From: Mobula birostris
Taxonomy: Eukaryota
NCBI RefSeq assembly: GCF_030028105.1
Contig: NC_092397.1
Span: forward strand, 32,765,097 to 32,829,096
DNA length: 64,000 bases
Reading direction: 5' to 3'
Shown here: positions 43,754 through 44,507 of the stretch, in pieces
Layout: each line of letters begins with the position of its first letter
How positions within the stretch are numbered: position 1 is the stretch's first letter
The notes under the pieces: generated by a model
Told to the model about the DNA's origin: nothing
What the model saw: only the letters and a program-made list of their open reading frames with translations
Database searches by the model: none
Program-made: the position numbers and the translations under genes

Positions 43754-44039
43754 GACTGCACTATGTTCTCCTCTACAATTACACCAGTCAAACTTTACAC
43801 CTTCACAATCTTCATATTAAGTTTCCCACAACACTAACTGCACCTTAGTTTCCCAGGAGATACTGCCACAACATGCCCAAATCTCTGACATTGTGACATC
43901 TAAGCGGAGGTGGAATATGCGCTCGTGCATTATAACTAACATACCCCAGACTAACTTTACTTGAAAGCTTCACCTCATCAAAATATATCAATGCAGTTAA
44001 ACTGTCCATGTTTTCTCCATTTCAAACTACTTGTAATCT

Positions 44040-44258
44040 CTGCAACACACACACAAAATGCTGGTGAACACAGCAGGCCAGGCAGCATCTATAGGAAGGG
44101 GTACAGTCGACGTTTCGGGCGAGTCCTGACGAAGGGTCTCGGTCCGAAACGTCGACTGCAACTCTTTCTATAGACGCTACCTGACCTGCTGCGTTCACCA
44201 GCACTTTTGTGTGTGTGTTGCTTGAATTTGCAGTATCTGCAGATATCCTCGTGTTTGC
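44040..44258 (+). mobile_element. Penelope-derived fold-back short element with 11-bp TSD
   Basis: ACTTGTAATCT at 44029-44039 and 44259-44269; long inverted arms (44042-44117 vs 44144-44222). Confidence 0.85.
44122..44158 (+). ncRNA. Minimal type I hammerhead ribozyme motif, intact core
   Basis: AGTC-CTGACGA-A-GGGTCTCGGTCC-GAAA-CGTC-GACTG. Stem I AGTC/GACT, both conserved core boxes, GUC cleavage triplet, palindromic ACGT stem III. Confidence 0.75.
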
Positions 44259-44507
44259 ACTTGTAATCTATTTACATTCTTAATCTCTTTATCGAAATCT
44301 CCACCAGAACACCTGTCCTAACACCCCGATACCTGTATTTTCATTAGGCAACACAGATACCATCTTTTTTTAACCAAATAAAGTCTTCAAATGTAATGCC
44401 TTCTCACAGTTTCTTATCTTAACGATTAGCACATCACCTCCCCTTAAGGTTTGAGCACAATCTATATTCCCTAAAATAGTTATCAAATTTAGTTAACTTC
44501 AATTGAG

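Follow-up and report, generated by a model that had tools for sequence, protein, structure and literature searches.

The locus lies in a 64,000-nucleotide stretch of the Mobula birostris genome (NC_092397.1, positions 32,765,097 to 32,829,096), hereafter the window, which holds six tRNA genes and histone genes, the latter (H2B, H2A, and H1, with histone stem-loops) at 567–12889. At 44029–44269, a 219-bp insert stands between 11-bp direct repeats of ACTTGTAATCT (44029–44039 and 44259–44269), which bears out an earlier note on this DNA that had described an insertion of about 220 bp with an 11-bp target-site duplication and inverted arms. The arms pair over 64 nt (44055–44118 with 44144–44207, 86% complementary) and over an additional segment of 17 nt (44042–44058 with 44205–44221, 100% complementary), and for the insertion strand the predicted folding energy is −148.7 kcal/mol (z = −16.3), a stability reached by 0 of 200 shuffles.

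Positions in the family are numbered here from 0, the first base of hammerhead stem I (44122), which places the predicted cut between +31 and +32. Read from the left, the duplication (44029–44039, plus strand), kept with few changes in 28 of 28 segmental copies of the locus, is followed by two extra bases (44040–44041) and by an inverted, 5′-truncated Penelope end on the minus strand (44042–44121; 80 nt, about +18 to +98), which has no CUGANGA and stops at the “short” terminus. The parts to its right all lie on the plus strand: a minimal type I hammerhead motif of a Penelope pseudo-LTR (44122–44157, predicted cut 44153/44154); the remaining pseudo-LTR end to its AC/GT-rich short terminus (44158–44221), matching copies that encode reverse transcriptase (RT) and GIY-YIG and also adjoining the hammerhead in four of these (L151, L190, L193, and L197); a 37-nt Penelope “tail” to the “long” terminus (44222–44258); and the right duplication, a direct repeat of the left (44259–44269). 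The tail is present on the right arm only, so that the insertion is asymmetric, and the right arm corresponds to the terminal 137 nt of a Penelope-like element that is autonomous and encodes RT + GIY-YIG. A search for the empty site gave 0 matches genome-wide with up to 2 mismatches allowed, and the target-site duplication call therefore leans on the repeat itself and on the behavior of the family, in which duplications of 11–18 bp flank 32 of 39 insertions that pair a long with a short end.

Two other stubs occur in the window. One is a fold-back of an older Penelope family (44505–44650), 240 bp downstream, in which the hammerhead core has decayed and the tail belongs to the inverted arm, here the left one; the other is a solo stub (36061–36153) that starts at about +1 between 10-bp repeats, and a duplicate segment at 20.7 Mb of the window's contig lacks it and shows what looks like the empty site, the overlap being 10 nt.

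The 27 best other matches to the insertion in the 4.0-Gb genome (93–98%) are all on the window's own contig, at 19–37 Mb, and these near-identical copies share both flanks and the same duplication with it; they therefore represent one insertion, multiplied together with a tRNA-gene segment. Four duplicate regions that we examined match the window across 8–14 kb, with tRNA genes present. The tRNA-gene segment (window about 34000–58100) has been duplicated at least 28 times within 19–37 Mb and stands in tandem units of about 12.5–14.8 kb at two places. No purifying selection was seen at the locus among the 28 copies, in which 2 of 11 core positions vary vs 29 of 208 elsewhere and the core is intact in 23. 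The CpG observed/expected ratio of the window is mostly 0.6–0.9 from 44 kb onward vs 0.15–0.2 at 40–44 kb, and the hammerhead motif likely looks intact here because CpG is well retained.

The hammerhead motif and its parent element

The hammerhead core reads as reported earlier, with its CUGANGA and GAAA boxes and GUC triplet. Stem I (44122–25/44154–57) is followed by CUGACGA (44126–32), an extra A (44133), a stem II of two G-C, one G-U, and one U-G pairs (44134–37/44142–45), GAAA (44146–49), and CGUC (44150–53), with predicted cleavage at 44153/44154. The reading as a minimal type I hammerhead with an extra A and a palindromic stem III likewise agrees with the definition of the minimal hammerheads of Penelope-like elements (Cervera and De la Pena 2014, PMC4209133), with which the motif shares CUGANGA, an extra base after A9, G10.1-C11.1, a 4-bp helix I, palindromic 15.2–16.2, and the absence of helix III. 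It differs in a helix II of just 4 bp with two wobble pairs, and the portions of that paper cited here, which describe such ribozymes as mostly single, with some pairs on opposite strands 100–700 bp apart, do not name sharks and rays. An Rfam search returned no hammerhead match at E ≤ 10 in 43800–44500, its three matches there being weak and unrelated, and none at gathering score in the whole window.

Folding prediction gives all eight hammerhead pairs a probability of about 0 in the full hairpin, where forcing them costs about 36 kcal/mol, and likewise about 0 in the right arm by itself; only in the isolated 37-mer is stem I formed (0.6–0.7) and stem II partly so. The idea that an antisense arm silences the ribozyme is thus what folding predicts, while the extent first given for that arm, 14 nt (44104–44117), falls well short of the actual 44042–44121, which is antisense to the whole of the right arm between about +18 and +98. 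Silencing in the hairpin is predicted to be a by-product of the layout, and the folding models make it likely that the hammerhead copy in 44029–44269 is inactive.

The motif has a different standing in the wider family. Across 75 copies of older families, the majority letter coincides with that of the young family throughout the core (11 of 11 positions) and the stems (16 of 16), while N7 differs and agreement is 0 of 10 at upstream and 8 of 15 at downstream positions; at +51 to +80, conservation equals that of the core (27 of 30). The expectation that the core be conserved beyond its flanks accordingly holds across older Penelope families for the immediate flanks, with +51 to +80 equally kept. 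Covariation in the helices is slight: only pair 15/20 takes more than one pair type among the 75 copies (U-G 56, U-A 7, C-G 6), and the remaining pairs vary mainly through CpG decay. Since core and stems keep their majority letters where N7 and the immediate flanks differ, the motif appears to be maintained in active Penelope elements; in their copies it decays at CpGs. We infer that the stub inherited the ribozyme as a component of the autonomous element. Among the first 100 exact intact copies, 82 have T at position +23 (window 44145), as do L190, L193, and L197, a change that turns the conserved G10.1-C11.1 into G-U (or shifts it to an A-U register). Given this T, recent masters may tolerate a weaker ribozyme.

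The 34-nt core has 5,158 exact copies genome-wide, or 27,813 with one common variant allowed, and the 31-mer immediately downstream has 62,354. Longer copies carry an ORF upstream of the hammerhead motif, in a unit of about 3.5 kb. In L151, a 558-aa frame is followed by the hammerhead and the tail; its translation has the motifs DKG (in a neighboring frame), YIDD, and GVIY-CxxCxxC-LYIG, and matches RVT_1 (E 7e-7, 29.5 bits, just under the Pfam cut-off of 29.6) and GIY-YIG (E 0.0075, also under the Pfam cut-off). L151 begins with an inverted copy of 730 bp and stands as a whole between the repeats of a 13-bp duplication. It has the build of the window element at a large scale. Three of the 19 loci holding the ORF start (L190, L193, and L197) are partial tandems, in which the hammerhead and tail lead into the ORF. 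The family thus has an RT followed by a C-terminal GIY-YIG in one ORF, as in endonuclease-bearing (EN+) Penelope-like elements (L151, with Pfam scores at or under the cut-offs), together with the layout of these elements, i.e., partial tandems or pseudo-LTRs, an inverted 5′-truncated copy, a one-sided tail, and a variable duplication. The earlier attribution to Penelope, with mobilization by its RT/GIY-YIG protein, is upheld; both arms represent the end of RT/GIY-YIG elements. A CX2-5CxxC zinc-finger-like linker before GIY-YIG marks the Neptune/Nematis clades (PMC8557442), and the L151 linker, CKRNKCYTC, is of the CX4CxxC zinc-finger type; the parent family would thus be of Neptune/Nematis type, as placed by motifs rather than by a tree. 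Four sequencing runs were aligned to the parent element, all as contigs that reveal neither RNA ends nor strand. Contigs from two runs of one study, whose RNA origin is only a guess, connect sequence 299 nt upstream directly with the start of stem I (L193:2061–2361); a putative intron between the ORF end and the AG at stem I would have this length.

Head-to-head layout with an inverted 5′-truncated copy, a one-sided tail of 30–40 bp, and a target-site duplication has been described for Penelope-like elements (PMC8557442, PMC3846280), and the complex insertions of EN+ elements share with the window copy this arrangement, the tail at one end (37 nt here), the variable duplication, and the partial tandems in the parent. 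The window copy differs in its small size of 80 + 137 nt and in its lack of coding sequence, and strict long + short pairing and a start hotspot are not stated in the parts of those sources drawn on here. With Poseidon_Ac of Anolis (Frangieh et al. 2024, PMC11167929), the family shares a hammerhead followed by an AC-rich start site and then by a tail leading into the ORF, and two RT start sites that match its two end groups, while differing in its CX4CxxC linker (Neptune/Nematis type) and in the first ATG of its long frame, which lies about 36 nt past the tail and not in stem II. The non-LTR retrozymes (PMC7229834; bioRxiv 2026.07.22.740005) are, like the window element, non-coding, related to Penelope-like elements, and equipped with a type I hammerhead, but are described as head-to-tail tandems with at least two ribozymes, and we rejected retrozyme identity given the single head-to-head element here with its one complete motif.

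Breakpoints, junctions, and end pairing

The first base of the motif, where the right arm of the window begins (44122), is the 5′-breakpoint hotspot of the family. Among 171 copies not selected on the core, 34 have their 5′ breakpoint at −4 to +4, and genome-wide the hotspot holds 1,448 of 27,813 (5.2%) vs 51 of 44,719 (0.11%) at the control position +45, about 46 times as often. Position 0 is the outer edge of stem I and also coincides with an initiator-like word and with a pyrimidine-tract-AG, acceptor-like word, the latter being kept in older families (AG in 39 of 75 copies). The Penelope intron of D. virilis ends at helix I (PMC4209133). Spliced templates, with the ORF end joined to the hammerhead, were considered and rejected, as three pattern matches were found and the exact joint was in none; a shared upstream exon was found at none of 30 loci starting at 0, and a cap-derived G before the first base was not enriched among the first 100 matches (G 33, C 36, A 31). 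The simplest reading of the hotspot is an RNA 5′ end at 0, a block by bound proteins being the alternative.

A start peak at the ribozyme cut site was also considered and rejected, with starts at +28 to +35 (8 among the 171 copies) occurring at the same rate as at +5 to +27. Genome-wide, the raw counts are 450 matches at +32 vs 51 at control +45. Among 30 matches at +32 that were inspected, 4 are point mutants, roughly 10 look clean by eye, and about half of the remainder are GAC/GACT overlaps or apparent short deletions between two GAC words. The breakpoint rate over the whole hammerhead is about four times that of +36 to +50, so cleavage is hinted at most. At six loci (L288, L293, L295, L303, L305, and L308), the junction resembles a start near 0 with a subsequent 26-nt deletion between the two GAC words of the motif.

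The single stubs from 0 to +133 might be seen as a SINE-like unit with an internal promoter, supplying much of the short RNA, of the kind that would have been copied into the window insertion. Such a unit would suit the strong hotspot at 0 and the several copies of this kind that directly adjoin their duplication, as well as the internal TATA-less promoter of D. virilis Penelope (PMC2377424) and internal RT initiation, which would set the 3′ end whatever the flank (PMC11167929). However, the subfamily mix of start-at-0 and longer copies is alike at the single site compared (89/11 vs 82/18, P = 0.23), as expected if all copies come from autonomous masters, and run-off from full-length mRNA would account for the stubs with no new unit, so that we consider a SINE-like source quite unlikely.

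Junctions between arms were classified at loci chosen by the exact core, namely the first 100 matches on contig C1, which make 98 loci with two close pairs fetched together. Of these, 97 were classified, with arm starts from −1514 to +75, and 54 have an inverted neighbor. The earlier note took the window insertion for a member of a non-autonomous retroelement family, and in that case the fold-back would be transcribed and retroposed as a whole hairpin; non-autonomous derivatives of Penelope-like elements are indeed on record (PMC8557442; bioRxiv 2026.07.22.740005), and the window-type junction recurs at dispersed loci with duplications of their own, being present in several of the 12 best dispersed matches and, in one exact 33-nt form, in 11 copies on 9 contigs. 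Those 11 copies stand against 5,158 exact cores, however, and junctions are heterogeneous, with 63 distinct junction pairs in 84 abutting pairs. The window type occurs in 4 of the 30 start-at-0 loci, with the tail on the inverted arm in two, and carries different subfamily letters; the same junction with either polarity cannot be given by one master. The 27 closest copies, with their common flanks and duplication, are segmental duplicates of one insertion, and a fixed junction and polarity in many dispersed copies, as a non-autonomous fold-back family would have, were not found. This claim of the note is therefore not supported, retroposition of the whole hairpin being very unlikely, and the window-type junction most likely recurs because the start hotspot meets a short AG/GAG overlap.

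Ends in the family form two groups, short (about +95 to +104) and long (+132 to +135). Both ends could be classified in 45 two-armed insertions, nine more of the 54 having an unclassifiable end, and 39 of the 45 pair a long with a short end (P = 3e-7 against 0.5); the other 6 fail this rule by the thresholds used. A second count gives 78 of 84, in a set partly enriched for the window-type junction. Fourteen of the 39 have a short arm that extends past the 5′ limit of the tailed arm by more than 5 nt and therefore cannot have been copied from the cDNA of the latter. At subfamily sites, the two arms of an insertion tend to carry the same letters, with 50 mismatches in 372 against a permuted mean of 150 and a minimum of 120, an agreement that could also stem from later gene conversion. 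Self-priming of one strand (snap-back), proposed along with junction palindromes for rotifer Penelopes (PMC3846280), would explain the likeness of arms within one insertion and the near-perfect palindrome at some junctions (L060), yet it needs one arm nested in the other, contrary to those 14 pairs, and leaves the fixed short terminus of the second arm unexplained, making it very unlikely.

Formation of the insertion and its meaning

Our main reading, to which we give a probability of about 0.8, is that 44029–44269 holds a single, very short insertion of an abundant Penelope family, made up of two head-to-head stubs, likely made by a cut of both target strands and two RNA copyings from fixed start points, and likely a dead end with its hammerhead predicted to be buried. 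The enzyme of the element would cut both strands of the target DNA, and each cut strand would prime one copying of the RNA, with the tail end as one start and the AC-rich internal site as the other. The cDNA of the right arm would then stop where stem I begins, either by run-off at an RNA 5′ end or because of a block, and the two cDNAs would be joined via a short AG/GAG overlap. Separate priming by each cut strand, with RNA from one source as the template, would fit the end groups, their pairing, the non-nested arms, and the agreement between arms. In vitro, a Poseidon protein cuts both strands and extends them, starting at two sites in the RNA that lie at either end of the tail; this activity is independent of cleavage by the ribozyme, and no difference between strands was seen in the choice of start site (PMC11167929). 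Because the start site is the same on both strands there, the long + short pairing is unexplained by the in vitro work, and this equal use counts against a simple version of the two-priming model.

A broader reading, which we put at somewhat less than an even chance, is that the stubs, many thousands in number, are a fossil record of the Penelope insertion cycle, in which the two cut target strands prime separate RNA copies, at the tail end and at the AC-rich internal site, with many cDNAs running off at an RNA 5′ end that coincides precisely with the start of the hammerhead and not with the cut site. If this is true, the mRNA would begin with its own ribozyme, and the short stubs would be “strong-stop”-like products, with priming on the start sites in their 5′ copy.

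The element itself is ordinary, with a known layout, a known class of retrotransposon, and a known ribozyme motif. A literature search over titles and the beginnings of abstracts found no shark or ray description of the family and none of the start hotspot, though the family may be recorded in Repbase, in Dfam, or in the supplements of PMC4209133. The origin of inverted ends and one-sided tails in Penelope-like elements is described as still undefined (PMC8557442), and the family statistics bear on how these structures form. The stubs likely record where Penelope copying starts and stops, and directly testable predictions follow from the long + short rule, from the arms that are not nested, and from the hotspot of starts.
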